From a virus, in the UHGV virus genome UHGV-0192790: DNA of 12,248 bases, one strand, 5' to 3'. The notes beneath the pieces were generated by a model that was not told where the DNA came from, ran no database searches, and was given only the letters and a program-made list of their open reading frames with translations. Both the position numbers and the translations under genes were made by a program. Numbering within the stretch: position 1 is the first letter of the stretch; every line of letters starts with the position of its first letter. Below are positions 239 to 8,744 of the stretch, piece by piece.

Positions 239-802
239 TTATTCTGGTACGAAATCCCTAACCGACTTCAAATCCTCCAGACTACTCAGCTCCTCTTTCA
301 TCTCACGCTGACGACGATAAATCTCGGCGTTGCGATCGACCTGCGCCTGCGCCATCGCGGCTGCCAGTTCTTCCAGTTCCGGCATCGACAGTTTCACCTG
401 TTGATTATCAGCGTCGCCCCACGCAAGGGCGGTTCGTGCCGTATCAGATTTTGCAGCCATTACCACCGGATAAAGACGAGCCATTGAGTCGGGGCCAGCG
501 TTCCAGGTGCGACCATTCCATTCGAACGTGAACGGCAGTGCCTCCTGTTCTGTGCGCCACGCCTCGATTTCCATCTTTTTGGCATCTTTTGCCGCTGCGA
601 TAAGTTCAGGCGTGACTGTAAACGGGGCGATTTCACCCCATTTGCCACTTTGCAGTTCCTGCCAGATTTGCTGGCCCGTCGGTGCGGTATCGTCTGCTGT
701 CGCTGTATACGGCAGGGCCTCGTCCATCCCCTCAAACAATACGTCGCAGTCAATCGCGCCGCTTTCCAGCCAGCGCGCATTTTCGATTTTTTTTACTTCC
801 AT
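239..802 (-). CDS. Putative tail-fibre accessory/chaperone protein (non-canonical; function uncertain)
   Basis: 187 aa ORF starting 8 nt after the stop of the 973 aa fibre gene. ATG at 802 preceded by AGGTGA about 4 nt upstream. Lacks the C-terminal EWP motif of classical Tfa, so the call rests mainly on position. Confidence 0.4.
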   Translation of the reverse strand: MEVKKIENARWLESGAIDCDVLFEGMDEALPYTATADDTAPTGQQIWQELQSGKWGEIAPFTVTPELIAAAKDAKKMEIEAWRTEQEALPFTFEWNGRTWNAGPDSMARLYPVVMAAKSDTARTALAWGDADNQQVKLSMPELEELAAAMAQAQVDRNAEIYRRQREMKEELSSLEDLKSVRDFVPE

Positions 803-809
803 AAATCAC

Positions 810-3731
810 CTACGCAACTCGTATAAACAGACCAATCATGACGCTGGCGGAACCGGCAGACCCCAGTCCATTCCCCGACAATGCCCGGTATGTGCCTGGC
901 ATTCCGCCACCGGAACCCTGAACATACACAGAAACACTGCCGTTGTATTTAACCCCGGTCCCGGTCGTACCGTAACACATCAATTCAACCGCACTCAGAC
1001 GTGACCCAGGATAGCTGTAACCTCGCTTTATTCTGCGGTCCGGGTCTGCGTTTCCCTGGCCGTTATATGCCGCCAGTATCAGGCTGCCAGTGCCGTACCA
1101 GGTATCTGTAGTTCCGGGAGCAAGGCCGGACAGAAGAGCAATAATGTCCTGCGAGGTTACCTTCAGTGATTCCCAGTCAATGAGATAACCATTTCCTGTG
1201 GTCCAGTAGCGGTTGTAATAAATGTGGCCATTAACACCATAGAAAATAATCGCCTTTGCTGTATTTATCGGACTCGGTGTGGCATATCTGGACTCAATCC
1301 ACCGAATACTGACAATCCCGCTGAACAGCACATTGGGTATAATTTTATTGCCACCCTCAACAAAATATTCTCCTGGCGTGACCTGTTTTACCCACACCAG
1401 AAAATCATTTTCTGAGTCAAAGCGGACAGTTTCGTTTGTGTTGAATATACGCCCAAAACCGAAGGCATCGGGAAGTGCCAGCCTGCCTTCCGTCCTGTCG
1501 CGAATATCACTCTGTGGCTCCATTGTGGCCGCCGCGCCCAGCGTGATATCGCCCCCTCCGAGCACGGAATGCCCGTTGATGCGCATAAAATCACAGGCAC
1601 GAAACTGTGGGATTTTTCCCCAGGCTGTAACGGATATGGCGGCGGCAACGTCGGCCACCGTGACGGCAGATGTCGCCCGGATTTGCAGGCGTCTGATGGC
1701 AGCCGTGGCTGCCGTCTGAGAAGTGGTGACCTTTGCCACAAAAGCAAAAAAATCACTCATGGCAAACGTATCAATGCCGTCGTAATTTGCCGTGAACAGG
1801 TCCGGGTAAGCACTCTGTATGGCGTCCAGAACCTGCCTGCCGTACCGTTCCACTTCTTCCTGTGTTTCCAGCACCCCAAAGCGCCACGGGGCCACAGAAA
1901 AACGGTCCTTATCAACAAAACGCCCTTCACCAGGCTCTGCCGGGTAATCCGTCTCGTTGTAATACGTCAGGAACCGTTTTTGTTCAGGTACAAACAACGC
2001 AAGCAGGCCAGCCCTGATGGTTTTCATGGCAGCGGTATATTCAGTTGCAGCAGTGGTATCTCCGGCAAGGTCAGCCAGTGTTTTCAGTGCACGTAAACCA
2101 GCATAAACCTCTGCGTTATCCTGACAAAAACACTGTGCATAAGCCCGGTCACCGGGTGCAAGATTGTGCTGGAATACGTTTACCAGACTGGCCACCGGAT
2201 TTATTTCAGCAACGATATTGAACTTTGCCACCTGTTTTATGATTTCCCAGCGGCTGGACCCGCCGATTCCGGCTGGCTCCTGTAACCAGGCACTGTCCGC
2301 AAATTCAGCAATGCAGGCGAACCAGAGCGCCGGGTAGCTGTCCGTGGAGTCCGGCGCAACGGGGGTATACAAATCCGGAGCCACATCCAGAAAAAAATAC
2401 TGCCATGCAGCCGGGATTCGGTTTGAGGGGCTTTTCAGGCACTCCAGCACAGCGGAGCCGGTCCGGACAAAATCTCCGGGGGCTACAGAGCTGATATCAG
2501 GCAACGTTTCCCCGGTGGTGCCCGCGATATTAACAAAAAAAAGCGTGCCGTTTATTGTCAGGCGCTGCCCGGCTTCATAACGGCAACCGGTCATAAACGG
2601 AACCACAAGCCCCAGTCTTAACGCCTTTTCGCAAATTGTCATACGGTCACTGAGGGAAAAGCATTTTCCTTCGCTTTCATACACGGCAAGAAACAGAAAA
2701 TACCAGTTGATACCACCGTTCGCATTCAGGTAGCGCCACAGCCCCTCGTAGCGCCCGCTGTTTATTCTCAACGCCTGTAGCTGAAGGTTCGCCTCTGTTA
2801 CCGAATAACGGGTTGATACTGAAAGGTGGTCATGAATGAATCCCTGCACATGCCCGGCCGCGTCTTTCGCCTCCTGAGCACTTATGGCGGCCGCGGCGGC
2901 ATTCTGACCGGTTTGTTTCGCATCCTCCGCAGTGGATTCCCTGTCCGCAGCCGTTGCAACCGCATTCTTTCTGGCTTCATCAGCAAAACGCTCTGCATCA
3001 TCACGCGCCGCTGCGGTTGCCTTCACATCCTGTGCGGTCTGCTGTGCACTTCCGGCAGCATTATCAGCGCAACTTTTCGCATTCTGCTCGCTCAGGGCGG
3101 CGTTATCCGCATTGTTTTTTGATTCCTCTGCGCTGGATGCTGAGTCATCTGCTGCCTGTTGAGCCTGCTTTACTGCATCTGTAACACTCTGCACACCCTG
3201 CTGTACCTGCCCGGCGTTCTGCTCAACTTCTGAGGCCAGCTGTGCAACGCGCTGTTTATCTTCGGCAACGGCTTCTGCATTCTGCTGTACGTTATCCGCC
3301 AGCATCTGGCAATCATCCTTAATCTTCTGCGCATCAGCTGCGTGTTGCCCGGACTGTCGTTCGCTTTCCGCTGCCGCTTCCGCGCTCTGCTGCGCCTGCG
3401 CCAACATTTCTTCGAAGCGTTTCACCACGTCGGGTTTGAGGTCGCCTTCATCAAGGGCAGTCAGAAAGTCGTTCAGCGTGCCGGGCTTTGAATCGTCGTA
3501 TACGGCAATGTCGCCAACACAGTACTCGTCGCGCCAGTCCTGTTTCAGATATACGCAGTATTTTCCGGTCTGCGCCTTAAAACAGTACTCGCCACAGTTT
3601 CCTGTCACCACATCAGCAACTGTGCGCATCACCACTTCTGACGTGTTTACCCGGGATTTCAGAATTATGTGGCATCCGGACATGGGGATGCCTGCGCCAT
3701 CAATCAGCGCACCTGATATCACTACAGACAT
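810..3731 (-). CDS. Tail fibre protein with lambda Stf-like N-terminal domain, long coiled-coil stalk and large C-terminal globular region
   Basis: 973 aa ORF. N-terminus MSVVISGALIDGAGIPMSGCHIILKSR...IAVYDDSKPGTLNDFL closely parallels the lambda side-tail-fibre N-terminus (MAVKISGVLKDGTGKP...ITVYEDSQPGTLNDFL). Residues about 110-300 are Ala/Gln/Glu/Asp-rich, typical of a fibre shaft. ATG at 3731, TAG at 810-812. Confidence 0.85.
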   Translation of the reverse strand: MSVVISGALIDGAGIPMSGCHIILKSRVNTSEVVMRTVADVVTGNCGEYCFKAQTGKYCVYLKQDWRDEYCVGDIAVYDDSKPGTLNDFLTALDEGDLKPDVVKRFEEMLAQAQQSAEAAAESERQSGQHAADAQKIKDDCQMLADNVQQNAEAVAEDKQRVAQLASEVEQNAGQVQQGVQSVTDAVKQAQQAADDSASSAEESKNNADNAALSEQNAKSCADNAAGSAQQTAQDVKATAAARDDAERFADEARKNAVATAADRESTAEDAKQTGQNAAAAAISAQEAKDAAGHVQGFIHDHLSVSTRYSVTEANLQLQALRINSGRYEGLWRYLNANGGINWYFLFLAVYESEGKCFSLSDRMTICEKALRLGLVVPFMTGCRYEAGQRLTINGTLFFVNIAGTTGETLPDISSVAPGDFVRTGSAVLECLKSPSNRIPAAWQYFFLDVAPDLYTPVAPDSTDSYPALWFACIAEFADSAWLQEPAGIGGSSRWEIIKQVAKFNIVAEINPVASLVNVFQHNLAPGDRAYAQCFCQDNAEVYAGLRALKTLADLAGDTTAATEYTAAMKTIRAGLLALFVPEQKRFLTYYNETDYPAEPGEGRFVDKDRFSVAPWRFGVLETQEEVERYGRQVLDAIQSAYPDLFTANYDGIDTFAMSDFFAFVAKVTTSQTAATAAIRRLQIRATSAVTVADVAAAISVTAWGKIPQFRACDFMRINGHSVLGGGDITLGAAATMEPQSDIRDRTEGRLALPDAFGFGRIFNTNETVRFDSENDFLVWVKQVTPGEYFVEGGNKIIPNVLFSGIVSIRWIESRYATPSPINTAKAIIFYGVNGHIYYNRYWTTGNGYLIDWESLKVTSQDIIALLSGLAPGTTDTWYGTGSLILAAYNGQGNADPDRRIKRGYSYPGSRLSAVELMCYGTTGTGVKYNGSVSVYVQGSGGGMPGTYRALSGNGLGSAGSASVMIGLFIRVA

Positions 3732-3754
3732 AGTTTTTCTCGCAATAAATTAAA

Positions 3755-4285
3755 TCAGGAAGAGGCTTCCGGAGAGACGGGCCATTCAATGGCGTTATAT
3801 GAGCTTTTATCAGCGATGGTGCTGAAATCCATCGCCTGCAGCGATTTCGCGTAAATGCGCCAGGCTGTCAGCTTTTCTTTTTCTTCATCACTGATGATTC
3901 CCAGAAGTAAATCCGTCTTCTTATCGGATATTTCCCGTTCGGCAATCGCAGTAAGACGTGCACGCTCCGACTCTGCCTGCTGCCGGTAGTCAACAGGGAC
4001 CGGCAGCACTTCACCGTCTTTATAATACCAGCGGGCTTCAATGCAAAATCCTTCCGGTAGTTCATCCACTTCCACAATGGTAAAACCAACGGGATAAAGA
4101 CGGGATGCATCTTCCGCCATGGAATAAATAACGCCGGTTTCAGGATGCGTGCACAGCTTGTATTTCTTCGTGAATTTATCCAGTGATTCATAAAAATCCT
4201 GCCCGTCTTCACTACGGAAATACTGAATGCCTTCACCATAAGGCATATCTTCAGGGTAGTAACGCGTAACGTTTACGAGTTCCAT
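3755..4285 (-). CDS. Tail fibre assembly protein (Tfa / P2 gpG / Mu U family)
   Basis: C-terminus ...YNAIEWPVSPE and internal ...EDGQDFYE..., ...DASRLYPVGFTIVEV..., ...RQQAESERARL... match the Tfa family pattern. The ATG at 4285 has a strong SD (AAGGAG, 6 nt spacer). The track ORF extends to 4321 but that extension overlaps the upstream gene and has no RBS. Stop TGA at 3755-3757. Confidence 0.85.
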   Translation of the reverse strand: MELVNVTRYYPEDMPYGEGIQYFRSEDGQDFYESLDKFTKKYKLCTHPETGVIYSMAEDASRLYPVGFTIVEVDELPEGFCIEARWYYKDGEVLPVPVDYRQQAESERARLTAIAEREISDKKTDLLLGIISDEEKEKLTAWRIYAKSLQAMDFSTIADKSSYNAIEWPVSPEASS

Positions 4286-4299
4286 TATTTTCTCCTTAA

Positions 4300-5682
4300 T
4301 TAACCTGATACGGATCGCCATGCACCATTAATATAAATCTGAGCCTGTTTGTAATACACGCCACCGATATTATCTGCAGAGTTACTGCCAGTGTCCTGAA
4401 CATTAATGCCTGACAAAACACAACCAGAAGGTGCCCGAAACGTCCAGCTGCGCTCATTCCCACCAGGGTTGTAAAACACCTCACTGGTGTACTGAAAATT
4501 CTGCACGCCCCCTGATTTGGTCTGGTAACGGGCATCAAAGTTTCCGTAGTCTGACGGTGTTACCCGCCCGGTAACGTTTACAGGTTTATTACTCTGGATA
4601 CTGCCAGCCTGAAAACGCAACACATGCACGCTATTGGCATAAACATCCAGCAGGCCATCACCATTCTGTTTCAGGCCGGTATCGTTATCCCCGAAAGCAA
4701 TTGAGTTTCCACCCAGCGCGTTCTGAACGCCGATACCCAGCGCACCATTGACCTGAGAACCGCCGCCAACAGACACTTTATGCGACATGGATATTTCACC
4801 CGTCCGCAGGTTAATAGTGAACGGACGAAGTGGACCAATATCGCCATTCTCGCCCTGACCTTCACTGGTAGGAATAAGGTGCAGGCACTCTTCCGAACGA
4901 CGAAAAATCAGACCAAAGGCTTCGTTGAAAATCCTCAGCGCATTAACTCCACGGATTTTCAGCCCCCCGGTCATCAAATCACCAGATTTTTTTACATATC
5001 GCAGATCAAAATCTGAATAGATATTGCCAGGGTTTATCACGCTGAAATAGCTTTTCTCGCTATCAAGAAGGCAAATCAAAGGAATACCCTTAATGATATC
5101 ATTCGCCACCAGCTCGGACTTGTTCCCCTTATAAAGTGGAAACGTACCAAGAACCTTTCCGCCCAGTGTCAATTGAAGCGTTGCGGCGTTGGTATTGTTC
5201 TGAACGGGGAAAACGATAATCGGGGTTCGTAGCGTCCAGTCCGAACCTCCATTAACAAAAAACGTCGCGGGAAGTTCCAGCGTCAGCGCGTTTGCAGTGC
5301 CACCAGCAACACCCGCAATATAATGACCGCTCTGAAGCTGCGCTATCTGTACGAAATAGTTTTCCGATCCACGCGTGGCAAAGTTAGCCACAACGTCATT
5401 AAGGGACCAACCTTTCGCGGTTGTTCCTTCCTGCCCACGAATGACTCTCAACACATCACCGCTTACCGATACCAGGTGACAAATCTCAAATGCAGACTCT
5501 TTATTATCGGTAAGCGTAATTTTTGCATAGACGCGTTGCCCGTTTGATTTATTTTCAAAATCAGCAGAAAGCAATTTTGCAAATTTAGCCCCTGTACCGG
5601 GCATTACCGGAATATCAGTCTGAATCGTGGTGATATCACCAGCCAGTGCTGAAACAACGTTATTGCCGAATCCAAGAATCAT
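4300..5682 (-). CDS. Tail fibre protein with P2 gpH / Mu S-type C-terminal receptor-binding region
   Basis: 460 aa. The segment NALGGNSIAFGDNDTGLKQNGDGLLDVYANS matches the conserved C-terminal region of P2 gpH-type fibres (as I recall it). Also contains an FDLRYVKKSGDLMTGGL motif typical of fibre proteins. Start ATG at 5682 overlaps the upstream stop as ATGA. Immediately followed by Tfa. Confidence 0.75.
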   Translation of the reverse strand: MILGFGNNVVSALAGDITTIQTDIPVMPGTGAKFAKLLSADFENKSNGQRVYAKITLTDNKESAFEICHLVSVSGDVLRVIRGQEGTTAKGWSLNDVVANFATRGSENYFVQIAQLQSGHYIAGVAGGTANALTLELPATFFVNGGSDWTLRTPIIVFPVQNNTNAATLQLTLGGKVLGTFPLYKGNKSELVANDIIKGIPLICLLDSEKSYFSVINPGNIYSDFDLRYVKKSGDLMTGGLKIRGVNALRIFNEAFGLIFRRSEECLHLIPTSEGQGENGDIGPLRPFTINLRTGEISMSHKVSVGGGSQVNGALGIGVQNALGGNSIAFGDNDTGLKQNGDGLLDVYANSVHVLRFQAGSIQSNKPVNVTGRVTPSDYGNFDARYQTKSGGVQNFQYTSEVFYNPGGNERSWTFRAPSGCVLSGINVQDTGSNSADNIGGVYYKQAQIYINGAWRSVSG

Positions 5683-6305
5683 TTTTGAATCACCGTTGTT
5701 GCATAGGAATAAATAAAAGGGAGTTTTACATACTTCTGGTCAATGGCATCTTTCAGAAAATAGCCTATACCATCACCATATTCTGGTATCTGAATAGAAA
5801 AAACACTGTCCGATACAGTCACGCTCACATCAAAAGTATGCTGCAACGGCGGGTCTATTCCGTTTTTCCCATGAATGAACCGCGCCACACGGCGCTTTAA
5901 CCAGTCAATGCAGAAATGCGAACCGTCAGCCTTATAAAAATTCCACGTTAATATTCGTTTGAAATAATCATCAGGGACATACGATGCCTGCCCCGGAACG
6001 TAATTCCGCATTGCTGCGTACGGGATCGTATTGTATTCAATGGTATCGTATGCACCGCGCGCAATAGCCTCCTCTGAAACCTGTAGTAAAGGTCTTTCAA
6101 CACCGTAAATACCAAGTGCTATCCAGTCCAGCAACTGCCCGGTTATTGATTCCGATGTCCAGCATGGCAATGCCAGATTGTTGAGTGAATCGAGGTATTC
6201 CTGAGCAATTTCATTGTATGCATCAAAGAACGCAACAACATTCGGATCATCTCTGTACTGCACAAACGGATAAGCAGGAAGTATTTTCTCAGTCAGATAT
6301 TGCAT
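5679..6305 (-). CDS. Putative baseplate wedge / tail-fibre connector protein (gpI/gp48-like by position)
   Basis: ORF between the J-like gene and the first fibre gene; stop TGA overlaps the fibre start (ATGA). The track start at 6362 would overlap the J-like gene by 74 nt and gives an odd N-terminus (MAIPIPIFRRWHHRFRSIS), so I prefer the in-frame ATG at 6305 (MQYLTEKILPAYPF...). Neither start has a strong SD. Family call is positional only. Confidence 0.4.
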   Translation of the reverse strand: MQYLTEKILPAYPFVQYRDDPNVVAFFDAYNEIAQEYLDSLNNLALPCWTSESITGQLLDWIALGIYGVERPLLQVSEEAIARGAYDTIEYNTIPYAAMRNYVPGQASYVPDDYFKRILTWNFYKADGSHFCIDWLKRRVARFIHGKNGIDPPLQHTFDVSVTVSDSVFSIQIPEYGDGIGYFLKDAIDQKYVKLPFIYSYATTVIQK

Positions 6306-7515
6306 ACTTATTGACCTGAACCTGTGATGCCACCGTCGAAAAATAGGAATAGGTATCGCCATAAACTAGGCTTGTGTCTTTTGCCGGAAGAACAATATGA
6401 CCGTTAATACCAATGCTCACACTGATTGTTGAGATCAACGTCGCATCAACCAGCAATTTTACGGAGCTGGTAAAAATATCCTGGATTCGCAGCAGATTTA
6501 TCGGGTGTCCGACTTCAATAGAATTGATGTAATCAGCAACGTTTTGCTGCACAGCCATAGCAATACCCGCCGGATCAACATAATCATCAGATACAGTGTT
6601 CCAGGTGATTAGCACCATGACGTTTTGTGATGACGGGATAACGAACGGCACCTGATAAACATCTGGCGAAACGGTTATTGAAACCGTGCGTTTTTCCACT
6701 GCCGCACCAGATGGATTGCTAACATCGTTGGTCAGTTTCGAAATATCCGGTACAGATTTGTAAATAGCATAAGCCACATCATACGGATCACCGCCACCAA
6801 CAACCGCAACCCATTTCCCCAGCGACGACTGCCGGAAAGAAATCAGGTTTTCTCGCACACCGCTTACTGATTTGAGCATCGCTTTAAAGCAATCCGGTGT
6901 TCCCTGCACACCAAACATGCCGGACTCCATGACTTCGGCGCGGTAAGATGCCCACGTTTGCGCCTCCTGACCTGGCATCCCTGCGGTAAGGTTCGTGCAT
7001 TTTACAGGCTGATCTTTGGGTACCGATGTAATGACCTGCGTTACGGTTCCTTCCGGTACAGCCCATGAGCCTGACGTTGTGGCCACACAGTAGACTGGCT
7101 CAGTCTGCCCGCTTTCCGGCACCACCGTATCGCGGGAAACTGCATACTGGTAGTTGCCGTCACCGACAACAAATCCTTTAGGGATACCAAACCCCGGCAA
7201 CGCCTCAAACACCACGTATACCGCCGTATTTGTACTTAATCCCTTCTGTGCTCCATAAATGTTTCCGAGTTGCATCAGTAACGGAATATTTGCGCCGTAT
7301 GGGCTTACGGAGTTAATAAGGTCCACCCGCGCCTGGTCTATTAATGCCAGCGCCCCGACTGCCGTGCTGGCAAGGTCAGTAATAAGCCCCGCCGGAAGGT
7401 TGGCTGTATATCCAGGTACTTTTTCAGCAACTCTGATGATAAGATTTGCAAGCAAATCATTGGGTGGCGTAGGCTGCGCCCCCGCACTGGTCATAGTAAT
7501 TGGTATTTCTGACAT
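6289..7515 (-). CDS. Baseplate J-like protein (P2 gpJ / Mu gp47 / T4 gp6 family), tentative
   Basis: 408 aa. Position upstream of the gpI-position and fibre genes. Internal pattern ...YCVATTSGSWAVPEGTVTQVITSVP... resembles the baseplate J family signature. ATG at 7515 preceded by GGAG with a 5 nt spacer. Confidence 0.5.
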   Translation of the reverse strand: MSEIPITMTSAGAQPTPPNDLLANLIIRVAEKVPGYTANLPAGLITDLASTAVGALALIDQARVDLINSVSPYGANIPLLMQLGNIYGAQKGLSTNTAVYVVFEALPGFGIPKGFVVGDGNYQYAVSRDTVVPESGQTEPVYCVATTSGSWAVPEGTVTQVITSVPKDQPVKCTNLTAGMPGQEAQTWASYRAEVMESGMFGVQGTPDCFKAMLKSVSGVRENLISFRQSSLGKWVAVVGGGDPYDVAYAIYKSVPDISKLTNDVSNPSGAAVEKRTVSITVSPDVYQVPFVIPSSQNVMVLITWNTVSDDYVDPAGIAMAVQQNVADYINSIEVGHPINLLRIQDIFTSSVKLLVDATLISTISVSIGINGHIVLPAKDTSLVYGDTYSYFSTVASQVQVNKYAISD

Positions 7516-7527
7516 ATTTACTCCATT

Positions 7528-7555: not shown

Positions 7556-8716
7556 TTATTCAACCTCTTCTAAACTGCTCGCTCTGGACCCTCGGCGGAA
7601 ATTATCATCATTTTTAACATACTCGTATGAATCCAGAATCAAACCAGATATGCGAAGTATATCTTCCGGATTAGTTATATGTATCCTTTTACCATCCGTA
7701 TCAAGTCGAGCTCGTCTTATTTCATTCAACTGAACTTCACTAAGCGAAATAGGTAAAGTTATAAATGAAGATTTTTTATCATAAAATCTTAACAGCCATC
7801 TATTAGTTTTACCATTCAATAGTATACCAAAATATGACTCAGTATCTTTATATTCTATATTATCTTCTGTTTGTATGATTTGTTTTACCCTTTCAAATAG
7901 CTCCAATTCTTTGGCTGTGGTTATTATGTTGGGGTTTTCTTCATCAACAATGGCGTTATTAACTTGTGTATCCGTTGCATCATTTTCTTTAGTTTGCTCT
8001 ACCGGTTGTGTAGATAGCCCGGAAACCACCATTGCGCTAACAGCGCGCTCAACGGCCTGTTTAACTAATGGAGTCACGAACTCAAGAAATCTCTGATTAA
8101 GTTGTCTCTCAATATTTGAACGACTAGCAACATATCGAACAAACTCCAGATCAACTTCACGAAGACTAGAACTGATTGTTTTAGTAAATGAATTCAAATA
8201 AACACTTTCTTCAGCCAGTGTCCGTAAAGCCTCTGGTTTGAATTTATCATAACGAAAACGAAATAATTGTGTAATATCGGAGTGAGTTAGAGAATCCATT
8301 CTTATTTTTAAAAACGGCGTTGAAGCCATTATGTTTTTTTGTTTCAAATCCGTAAAAAAACGCCATTCAACACCATTTGTAATGGCTGATATAGTAACTT
8401 CCGGTGTTGAATTAAAATATCTTGATAGCTGTGGGCAGTGATTATCAATTTGTTCTGAAAACGATTTCGCCTCAATGAACATCACAGGAACATCATGACA
8501 AAATAAAGCGTAATCAACCCGTTCATTAGCCTTAACCCCGGGGAAGTCAGCACTATACTCAGCTTTGACTTTTCTTGGATCATACGGAGTAAAACCAAGA
8601 ATATCTAGTAATGGCATAATGAGTGCTTGTTTTGTCGTTTCTTCAGTTGTACAAAACACCCCCATTTTTGCAACATGCTCTGTGTGTATTTTTAACTTAT
8701 TTGCAAAATTTTCCAT
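7556..8716 (-). CDS. PD-(D/E)xK nuclease-family protein with HsdR-N-like N-terminal domain plus unknown C-terminal domain; candidate moron (defence or homing-type endonuclease)
   Basis: AT-rich ORF. N-terminal region ...QALIMPLLDILGF...ERVDYALFCHDVPVMFIEAKSF...CPQLSRYF...ISAITNGVEWRFF carries the hallmark D / E-x-K / Q...Y / TNG..W motifs of the type I restriction enzyme HsdR N-terminal nuclease fold. Preferred start is the ATG at 8716, preceded by GGAGG with an 8 nt spacer. The track start at 8731 has no SD and adds only MEETS. Stop TAA at 7556-7558. Confidence 0.7.
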   Translation of the reverse strand: MENFANKLKIHTEHVAKMGVFCTTEETTKQALIMPLLDILGFTPYDPRKVKAEYSADFPGVKANERVDYALFCHDVPVMFIEAKSFSEQIDNHCPQLSRYFNSTPEVTISAITNGVEWRFFTDLKQKNIMASTPFLKIRMDSLTHSDITQLFRFRYDKFKPEALRTLAEESVYLNSFTKTISSSLREVDLEFVRYVASRSNIERQLNQRFLEFVTPLVKQAVERAVSAMVVSGLSTQPVEQTKENDATDTQVNNAIVDEENPNIITTAKELELFERVKQIIQTEDNIEYKDTESYFGILLNGKTNRWLLRFYDKKSSFITLPISLSEVQLNEIRRARLDTDGKRIHITNPEDILRISGLILDSYEYVKNDDNFRRGSRASSLEEVE

Positions 8717-8744
8717 GCTTGTCTCCTCCATGGTAACAATATGT

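Follow-up and report, generated by a model that had tools for sequence, protein, structure and literature searches.

The question raised by this locus is what the long C-terminal region of a large prophage side tail fibre does, and whether that region is one unit or several. The locus lies in a 12,248-nucleotide (nt) stretch of the virus genome UHGV-0192790, referred to here in its full length as the window, which corresponds to the right end of a Rac-SA53-like Escherichia coli prophage (a megablast alignment covers 67 % of the window at 92 % identity). Every credible gene of the window is encoded on the minus strand, and together they make up the distal portion of a phage tail operon. The gene under study is the second fibre gene of its cluster, the first being that of a 460-amino-acid (aa) fibre with a Caudo_TAP chaperone, and it encodes a large fibre of 973 aa in one intact open reading frame (ORF), as an earlier note made from the sequence alone had described. 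That note treated the last ~640 aa as a single non-fibrous region and suggested that it was a horizontally exchanged host-range module, possibly enzymatic. The region is instead made up of two modules, a barrel at aa ~305–727 and a fibre tip at aa 728–973, and its last ~245 aa are a widespread fibre-tip module. The protein is probably best read as a side tail fibre, borne by a Rac-SA53-like prophage and assembled as a mosaic of four modules, in which the barrel would be an enzyme acting on a surface glycan. The features of the fibre gene are as follows.

810..3731, minus strand: complete coding sequence of the 973-aa side tail fibre, a single intact ORF with its stop codon at 810–812
3330..3731, minus strand: lambda Stf-like N-terminal anchor, aa 1–134 (PF08400)
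2850..3329, minus strand: main part of the Ala/Gln/Glu-rich, proline-free, predicted helical shaft, aa 135–294 (from composition)
1551..2819, minus strand: predicted (alpha/alpha)6-barrel, glycoside-hydrolase-like domain, aa 305–727 (PHROG 33169 and fold model)
2439..2606, minus strand: beta-stranded insert in the barrel, aa 376–431, tentatively CBM5/12 (ChiA1 chitin-binding)-like (strands in the model)
2334..2354, minus strand: PDSTDSY motif, aa 460–466, with D461, S462, D464 and Y466 near-invariant in the family
2106..2123, minus strand: QDNAEV motif, aa 537–542, at the N-terminus of a barrel helix, with D538, N539 and E541 near-invariant
813..1550, minus strand: two-lobed fibre tip (receptor-binding module), aa 728–973 (homology and fold matches)
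813..1121, minus strand: hypervariable distal tip lobe, aa 871–973 (30.7 % identical in an otherwise 94–99 % identical relative)

The barrel domain was matched by PHROG 33169, a family of 'unknown function', over aa 294–731 (E 3e-216), with no other convincing match. Its relatives numbered 8 in a word-indexed search of 5.8 billion proteins, 35 by profile search and 87 when 1.84 billion cluster representatives were scanned exhaustively with HMMER. A tblastn search of 50,697 phage genome records returned no match for the domain, even at E 1, and none for a remote family member (P0017); neither the barrel nor the tip was matched by NCBIfam. Judged by sequence, the barrel is a separate family with only borderline Pfam coverage. 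The isolated domain reached 27.5 bits with PF22422, the GH63-like MGH1 domain (cut-off 27), over profile positions 176–267 of 356 only, and 6 of 31 family members were matched by the same profile. A cellular relative in a Eubacteriales metagenome-assembled genome (MAG), which carries both family motifs, passed the Pfam Trehalase (GH37) cut-off at the same helix.

An AlphaFold2 model of aa 295–745 (predicted template modelling score 0.71; predicted local distance difference test score, pLDDT, of 80–97 in the core) contained about 12 helices plus the beta-stranded insert. The nearest folds to the barrel model were glycoside hydrolases and glycoside phosphorylases with an (alpha/alpha)6 barrel, and the list of matches runs on to GH78, GH116, GH63, GH37 and others, while non-glycosidase barrels (epimerases and terpene cyclases) scored ~12.5 in the fold comparison. 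Structural alignments to (alpha/alpha)6 glycosidases had 8–14 % identity. A Foldseek search of the BFVD viral structures gave no convincing match for the barrel, only short beta-hairpin matches, among them, in the region of the insert, 'ChiA1-BD' proteins. The insert is tentatively described as CBM5/12-like, on a match to 1ed7 at E 1.1 and a Pfam CBM_5_12 match at E 0.0035, below threshold, in one relative (L011). A glycosidase-like fold for aa ~305–727 is predicted with good confidence from the model.

Conservation within the family was counted in 63 members that share less than 45 % identity with the window protein. D464 was kept in all 63, Q521 in 62, D461 and D538 in 61 each, N539 and E541 in 59, S462 in 58, Y466 in 57, and D449 and W482 in 55, and R610, D654, R681 and D694 were conserved wherever the C-terminal half of the barrel aligned. 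In the model these residues, including the carboxylates and arginines, map to the N-termini of successive barrel helices. The (alpha/alpha)6 glycosidases of families GH15, GH37 and GH63 form their catalytic funnel at the N-terminal ends of the helices. The QDNAEV motif is a candidate general-acid region, and the order of motifs, D(S)...E(V)...R(F/Y)..PW...D/E, may be like that of GH15 conserved regions 1, 3, 4 and 5. Compared with the enzymes of GH15 (glucoamylase, glucodextranase, dextran dextrinase), GH63 (YgjK, mannosylglycerate hydrolase) and GH37 (trehalase), the present barrel is more compact, at ~425 aa including the beta insert, and is borne on a virion fibre.

Several observations weigh against a glycosidase. 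The barrel model was built from a 7-sequence alignment, with a mean pLDDT of 64.9 and values below 50 at aa 295–340, 434–463 and 683–745. On the full-length fibre PF22422 scored 25.2 bits, under its cut-off of 27. The barrel-family profile found no sequence relative in the PDB, only a chance-level match to the ChiA1 chitin-binding domain, and when the whole fibre was compared with PDB sequences the anchor alone was matched. Alignments by hhalign to E. coli YgjK (GH63, E 0.14) and TreA (GH37, E 0.1) were not significant, nor were hmmsearch comparisons with the two, in which only the helix after the QDNxEV motif aligned; its pattern, xDNxEV...L..LA...GD...A..Y...A..ik.gi..LW, corresponds to TreA 350–391 and YgjK 581–621. 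The general acids of GH63 and GH37 (ESGxD loop) aligned convincingly with no conserved residue of the barrel, and in these non-significant hhalign and hmmsearch alignments the barrel carboxylates were not paired with TreA D312/E496 or YgjK D501/E727 (mature numbering). Because only one helix aligns with YgjK and TreA, the acid and base of the barrel are not assignable by alignment. A monomer-type barrel amid a presumably trimeric fibre would also be unusual.

The distribution of the family bears on its function in another way. The barrel was found behind anchors of the PF08400 (Stf-type), PF03906 (T7-fibre), PF12571 (P2 tail-collar) and epsilon15-tailspike types, so that the same domain sits on several different anchors, as an exchangeable glycan domain would. 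In a prophage relative located between an antirepressor region and a lysis cassette (P0003), the first ~190–225 aa are 55–69 % identical to the tailspikes of epsilon15, phiV10 and SPN1S; the anchor alone matches these, and no phage record covers more than 31 % of the protein. Past the anchor, several tailspikes of the epsilon15/phiV10/SPN1S type are annotated as right-handed beta-helices. Since a tailspike-type anchor is here followed by the barrel, the barrel takes up the position that a known enzymatic receptor-binding domain otherwise holds. Of two further relatives, one (P0005) belongs to a group of several fibre genes on a 129-kb phage contig and the other (P0037) comes after a Phage-tail_3 gene; distant ones are encoded in contigs of IMG/VR and in MAGs of Patescibacteria and Chthonomonas. 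Most members of the family are without the tip of the window protein, and many end with the barrel itself.

The tip has a different set of relatives. The 82 tip homologues are mostly the C-termini of ~410-aa E. coli fibres of the P2 type (PF12571) or the Stf type, and aa 728–973 are 74–87 % identical to the tips of some of these ~410-aa fibres. The module is also related to the tip of Rac-SA53 tail3 and its internal repeats, and to fibres of Goslar and Av-05. In fold comparison its top-ranking matches all come from phage fibre or receptor-binding proteins. It thus resembles knob-type tips in being C-terminal on fibres with unrelated anchors and in having a fold like that of solved fibre tips. 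The tips of the R2 pyocin PA0620 fibre, Mu fibre S, the C-terminal domains of phage K gp144 and the phi812 receptor-binding protein, and PF12571 fibres likewise have a distal hypervariable end; the tip of the 973-aa fibre differs from knob-type tips in having no Pfam (including Stf-type or gp37-type), NCBIfam or PDB sequence match. The statement that the C-terminal region lacks the tip motifs of the neighbouring 460-aa fibre is accurate insofar as the tip is not gp37-like, and goes too far insofar as it is still an ordinary fibre tip. The segment aa 728–973 is a conventional, non-enzymatic fibre tip. An enzymatic character for the C-terminal region was one part of the earlier proposal; the outcome set against it, a non-enzymatic fibre-tip fold, is what was found for the last 245 aa.

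Variation between close relatives is concentrated at the end of the tip. A sister prophage protein (P0109, locus L009) is 94–99 % identical to the window protein except in the last 103 aa (30.7 %) and in the DUF4376 protein encoded next to it (72.7 %); its barrel is 98.8 % conserved and its tip divergent. As the divergence is confined to the last 103 aa and the DUF4376 protein, the host-range hot spot is the distal tip lobe and not the middle domain. The idea that the host-range module and the enzyme are the same thing does not fit this pattern: they are separate modules, and close relatives vary in the tip, not in the barrel. Because each also occurs without the other, and because they diverge independently, barrel and tip are independently shuffled modules.

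Three observations concern the tip and its relatives in databases and genomes. The loci L009 and L010 (5001–8493, from Escherichia marmotae and E. coli) encode the same 973-aa fibre with a natural tip swap, which makes the pair useful for host-range experiments. Rac-SA53 tail3 (L003 1208–4393, 1061 aa) contains no barrel; instead the proximal tip lobe is present three times, at aa ~402–507, 529–671 and 799–1061. Many partial E. coli homologues of aa 728–973 are named 'shikimate transporter' in NCBI, evidently a propagated misannotation.

In the four-module reading, which we favour as probable, a lambda Stf-like anchor would fix the fibre to the virion and be followed by the Ala/Gln/Glu-rich helical shaft, the ~425-aa barrel with its small beta insert and the two-lobed, knob-like tip, presumably in a trimeric arrangement. 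The barrel would bind and, as its most likely activity, hydrolyse a host surface glycan, for which O-antigen, lipopolysaccharide (LPS) outer core, capsule, enterobacterial common antigen and colanic acid are candidates, with D461/D464, D538/E541 and D654/D694 as predicted catalytic carboxylates at the barrel mouth. It may in this way help the fibre to penetrate or process the sugar layer, while the distal tip would make the specific receptor contact, its last ~100 aa acting as a hypervariable determinant of receptor specificity. Hydrolysis of a host surface glycan by the barrel, taken by itself, is in our judgement evenly poised. In the same reading the barrel would belong to a rare phage-borne family distantly related to glycosidases of the GH15/GH63/GH37 type. 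The enzymatic or depolymerase-like character proposed earlier for the whole C-terminal region therefore survives for aa ~305–727, where the predicted fold, the borderline GH63/GH37 matches and the carboxylates at helix N-termini point to it, and not for the last 245 aa.

A more ambitious version of the enzymatic reading is tentative and somewhat doubtful. According to it, aa 305–727 would found a new phage-borne glycoside hydrolase family, with a compact barrel, a CBM5/12-like hairpin and the motifs PDSxDxY and QDNxEV, related to clans GH-G and GH-L at the level of fold only. Its members would act as surface-glycan depolymerases on the fibres and tailspikes of phages as diverse as E. coli prophages and viruses that infect Patescibacteria-like hosts, in a 'trim then bind' mode with a fast-evolving tip.

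The explanation that competes best with an active enzyme, although we consider it unlikely, is that the barrel is catalytically dead, being a lectin-like carbohydrate-binding domain or purely structural, so that the fibre only binds and its specificity lies in the distal tip. The catalytic residues of GH63 and GH37 lack a significant alignment to the barrel, binding is already supplied by a separate tip, and a barrel that is 98.8 % conserved while the tip varies is not a host-range switch within the lineage; all of this would suit an inactive domain. However, three to five carboxylates are near-invariant down to ~27 % identity, a degree of conservation more to be expected of a catalytic site than of a binding site. 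Many relatives also have the barrel as their terminal and only non-anchor domain, and in P0003 it sits at the position of the enzymatic beta-helix of epsilon15-type tailspikes.

Less probable still is that the barrel is an enzyme of the same fold with another activity: a polysaccharide lyase, an unsaturated glycuronyl hydrolase, a glycoside phosphorylase or a peptidoglycan glycosidase serving penetration. The CBM5/12-like insert would suit a beta-1,4-linked GlcNAc-type polymer, yet the position on a side fibre is far from the tail tip and ill-suited to penetration of peptidoglycan, phosphorylase chemistry is implausible outside the cell, and the sequence-level signals are only to GH63 and GH37 hydrolases. 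Polysaccharide lyases with an (alpha/alpha) barrel usually rely on Tyr, His and Arg, and not on an Asp/Glu set such as that conserved here.

The third alternative, the earlier view of one module of foreign composition, depends on how the region was acquired and on its base composition. The closest match changes along the window, as follows.

288–2909: fibre aa 275–973 and the greater part of the DUF4376 gene; 98.6 % identical in nt sequence to the Mu-like prophages carried by E. coli XJ34 and RM11911
2910–3230: part of the shaft; matches neither the Mu-like prophages nor Rac-SA53
3231–7523: anchor, Tfa, first fibre and baseplate genes; 92 % identity to Rac-SA53

The identity breakpoints, at which the closest match changes along the window, directly show that a cassette was exchanged between unrelated prophage types. 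The module architecture and the exchange are both well supported, and we hold them with high confidence; the claim of a horizontally exchanged module is borne out by the breakpoints and not by GC content. In XJ34 (NZ_CP098231.1; L001 8473–11097) an intact 874-aa ORF is 99.4 % identical to the fibre over its aa 275–973, and the ORF is in the same place in RM11911 (L002). In both strains RefSeq records no more of this ORF than a short pseudogene, 'N-terminal domain ... missing C-terminus', and leaves more than 2 kb unannotated, a gap that looks to be due to the absence of a model for the barrel and tip.

Base composition follows a different pattern. The fibre gene has a GC content of 53.5 % and a GC content at third codon positions (GC3) of 54.9 %. 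The four directly upstream genes have a GC3 of 46.3 % (chi-square P 6e-5 against the fibre gene), so that the gene is GC-richer than these neighbours, as had been noted. No such difference separates it from the baseplate genes that lie further upstream (GC3 54.4 %; P 0.85) or from the DUF4376 gene (GC 54.6 %), and an equally high GC content (54.7 %) is found in the Stf-like anchor, which it shares with Rac-SA53. Since anchor, DUF4376 gene and baseplate genes are equally GC-rich, GC content does not mark the C-terminal module. GC and codon composition was rejected as a sign of foreign origin, as the window is compositionally patchy and the fibre gene matches half of its neighbours. The region is aromatic-rich as reported, with 12.3 % F/W/Y at aa 330–973 versus 8.9 % in the 460-aa fibre.

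A single enzymatic host-range module, non-fibrous and of foreign composition, that spans the whole ~640 aa is very improbable and was rejected: aa 275–973 moved as one block between prophage types and the gene is GC-richer than the four adjoining genes, but ~410-aa fibres carry the tip and no barrel, most relatives carry the barrel and not this tip, the two were shuffled and diverged independently, the tip is nearest in fold to phage fibre or receptor-binding proteins, and GC content equals that of anchor, DUF4376 gene and baseplate genes.

The N-terminal half of the four-module fibre is that of a lambda Stf-like protein, in agreement with the earlier description of its N-terminus. PF08400, 'Prophage tail fibre N-terminal', matched aa 1–134 with E 2e-61 (206.3 bits against a gathering cut-off of 26.6), and aa 1–93 matched the PDB chain 9e7m_Ta, 'Tail fiber protein' (E 1.4e-16), which we take from its sequence to be lambda Stf. 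The anchor DNA is 91–96 % identical to the fibres of phiP27, Rac-SA53 and pPE4 over the first ~500 nt. The composition typical of the shaft begins at about aa 105, and aa 105–294 consist of 28 % Ala, 70 % A/Q/E/D/K/N and 1 % aromatic residues, with no Pro, a composition that would suit the coiled-coil shaft described earlier; this segment aligns with the shafts of other Stf-like fibres. The anchor contains five cysteines, C20, C46, C50, C59 and C71 (window 3519–3672, aa 20–71), of which C20 is common to the lambda-type 9e7m chain while the other four align to non-Cys residues there. They give spurious weak PDB matches to disintegrins and might be joined in disulfides or make up a metal site.

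The sequence of the fibre is already known, but under generic names only: two identical proteins are present in NCBI, HFW6990801.1 ('prophage tail fiber N-terminal domain-containing protein [E. coli]') and DAG20170.1 ('tail fiber protein [Caudoviricetes sp.]'). Its start codon is an ATG at 3729–3731, preceded by a weak GAGA Shine-Dalgarno sequence. Plus-strand ORFs inside the gene (for example 1569–2096) had no supporting evidence and were treated as chance ORFs.

The neighbouring genes of interest, in an operon whose order is baseplate hub, Baseplate_J, 460-aa gp37-like fibre, Caudo_TAP chaperone, 973-aa fibre and 187-aa DUF4376 protein, include the following.

239..802, minus strand: 187-aa DUF4376 protein, directly downstream of the fibre
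7556–8731, minus strand: 391-aa protein with a type I restriction HSDR_N / PD-(D/E)xK-like domain (PF04313, E 5.7e-14)

The DUF4376 gene starts 7 nt after the stop codon of the fibre and has a strong AGGTGA Shine-Dalgarno sequence, and from this arrangement appears to be translationally coupled to it. A DUF4376 gene also follows the homologous fibre in Rac-SA53, XJ34 and L009. It was co-transferred with the C-terminus of the fibre and diverges together with the tip (72.7 % identity where the distal tip is at 30.7 %), and the DUF4376 protein and the N-terminal part of the Caudo_TAP protein share PHROG 11571. Position and co-transfer suggest that it is most likely the cognate assembly or accessory protein of the tip. 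The pairing of an Stf-type tip with Tfa (Caudo_TAP, PF02413) was not found for the 973-aa fibre, which is followed by DUF4376; the Caudo_TAP gene at 3755–4321 belongs behind the 460-aa fibre.

Two ORFs of this operon, as called mechanically, probably start too far upstream: 5679–6362 (227 aa) and 3755–4321 (the 188-aa Tfa). Their starts are probably downstream because the PHROG matches begin at aa 20 and at aa 12–13, respectively, and with the starts moved to the onset of these matches the overlaps of 74 nt and 22 nt with the preceding genes vanish. The gene of the 391-aa protein interrupts the baseplate genes exactly where Rac-SA53 has rac61, rac62 and ant. Its product matches PHROG 4225, 'endonuclease' (E 1e-147), and had no match in PADLOC, and the gene has a very low GC content (35.8 %; GC3 26 %). 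It looks like a recently acquired moron, with a possible function in defence or superinfection exclusion.

The 973-aa fibre shares with lambda Stf and Stf-like fibres (Rac-SA53 tail3, phiP27) the PF08400 anchor and an Ala-rich shaft, and with Stf-like prophage fibres the place at the end of the tail operon with a small accessory gene next to it; it differs from lambda Stf and Rac-SA53 tail3 in having a barrel. With phage depolymerase receptor-binding proteins such as the tailspikes epsilon15 gp20 and P22 gp9 it shares the modular layout of an anchor followed by a glycan-processing domain, here a predicted enzyme. It differs from them in that the barrel lies in mid-fibre, carries a beta insert and is followed by a separate binding tip. 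Nearly all characterised enzymatic phage receptor-binding proteins are beta-helices or beta-propellers. The right-handed beta-helix and beta-propeller folds common among depolymerases are not those of the barrel domain, whose predicted fold is one listed as rare in surveys of phage depolymerases: the 'alpha/alpha toroid' class accounted for 11 of 984 hits (1.1 %) in the DepoScope survey (PMC11326577) and for 29 sequences (<1 %) among Klebsiella prophage depolymerases (PMC12491483). In the literature searched, no experimentally characterised alpha/alpha-toroid phage depolymerase was found, only these rare computational hits (~1 %).

Enzymatic receptor-binding proteins decide host range and are mined as anti-capsule and anti-biofilm enzymes. 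With an inactive barrel, the protein would simply join the other mosaic prophage fibres. An active barrel would represent a new enzyme family and a new fibre layout, with the enzyme in mid-fibre and the binding tip at the end.

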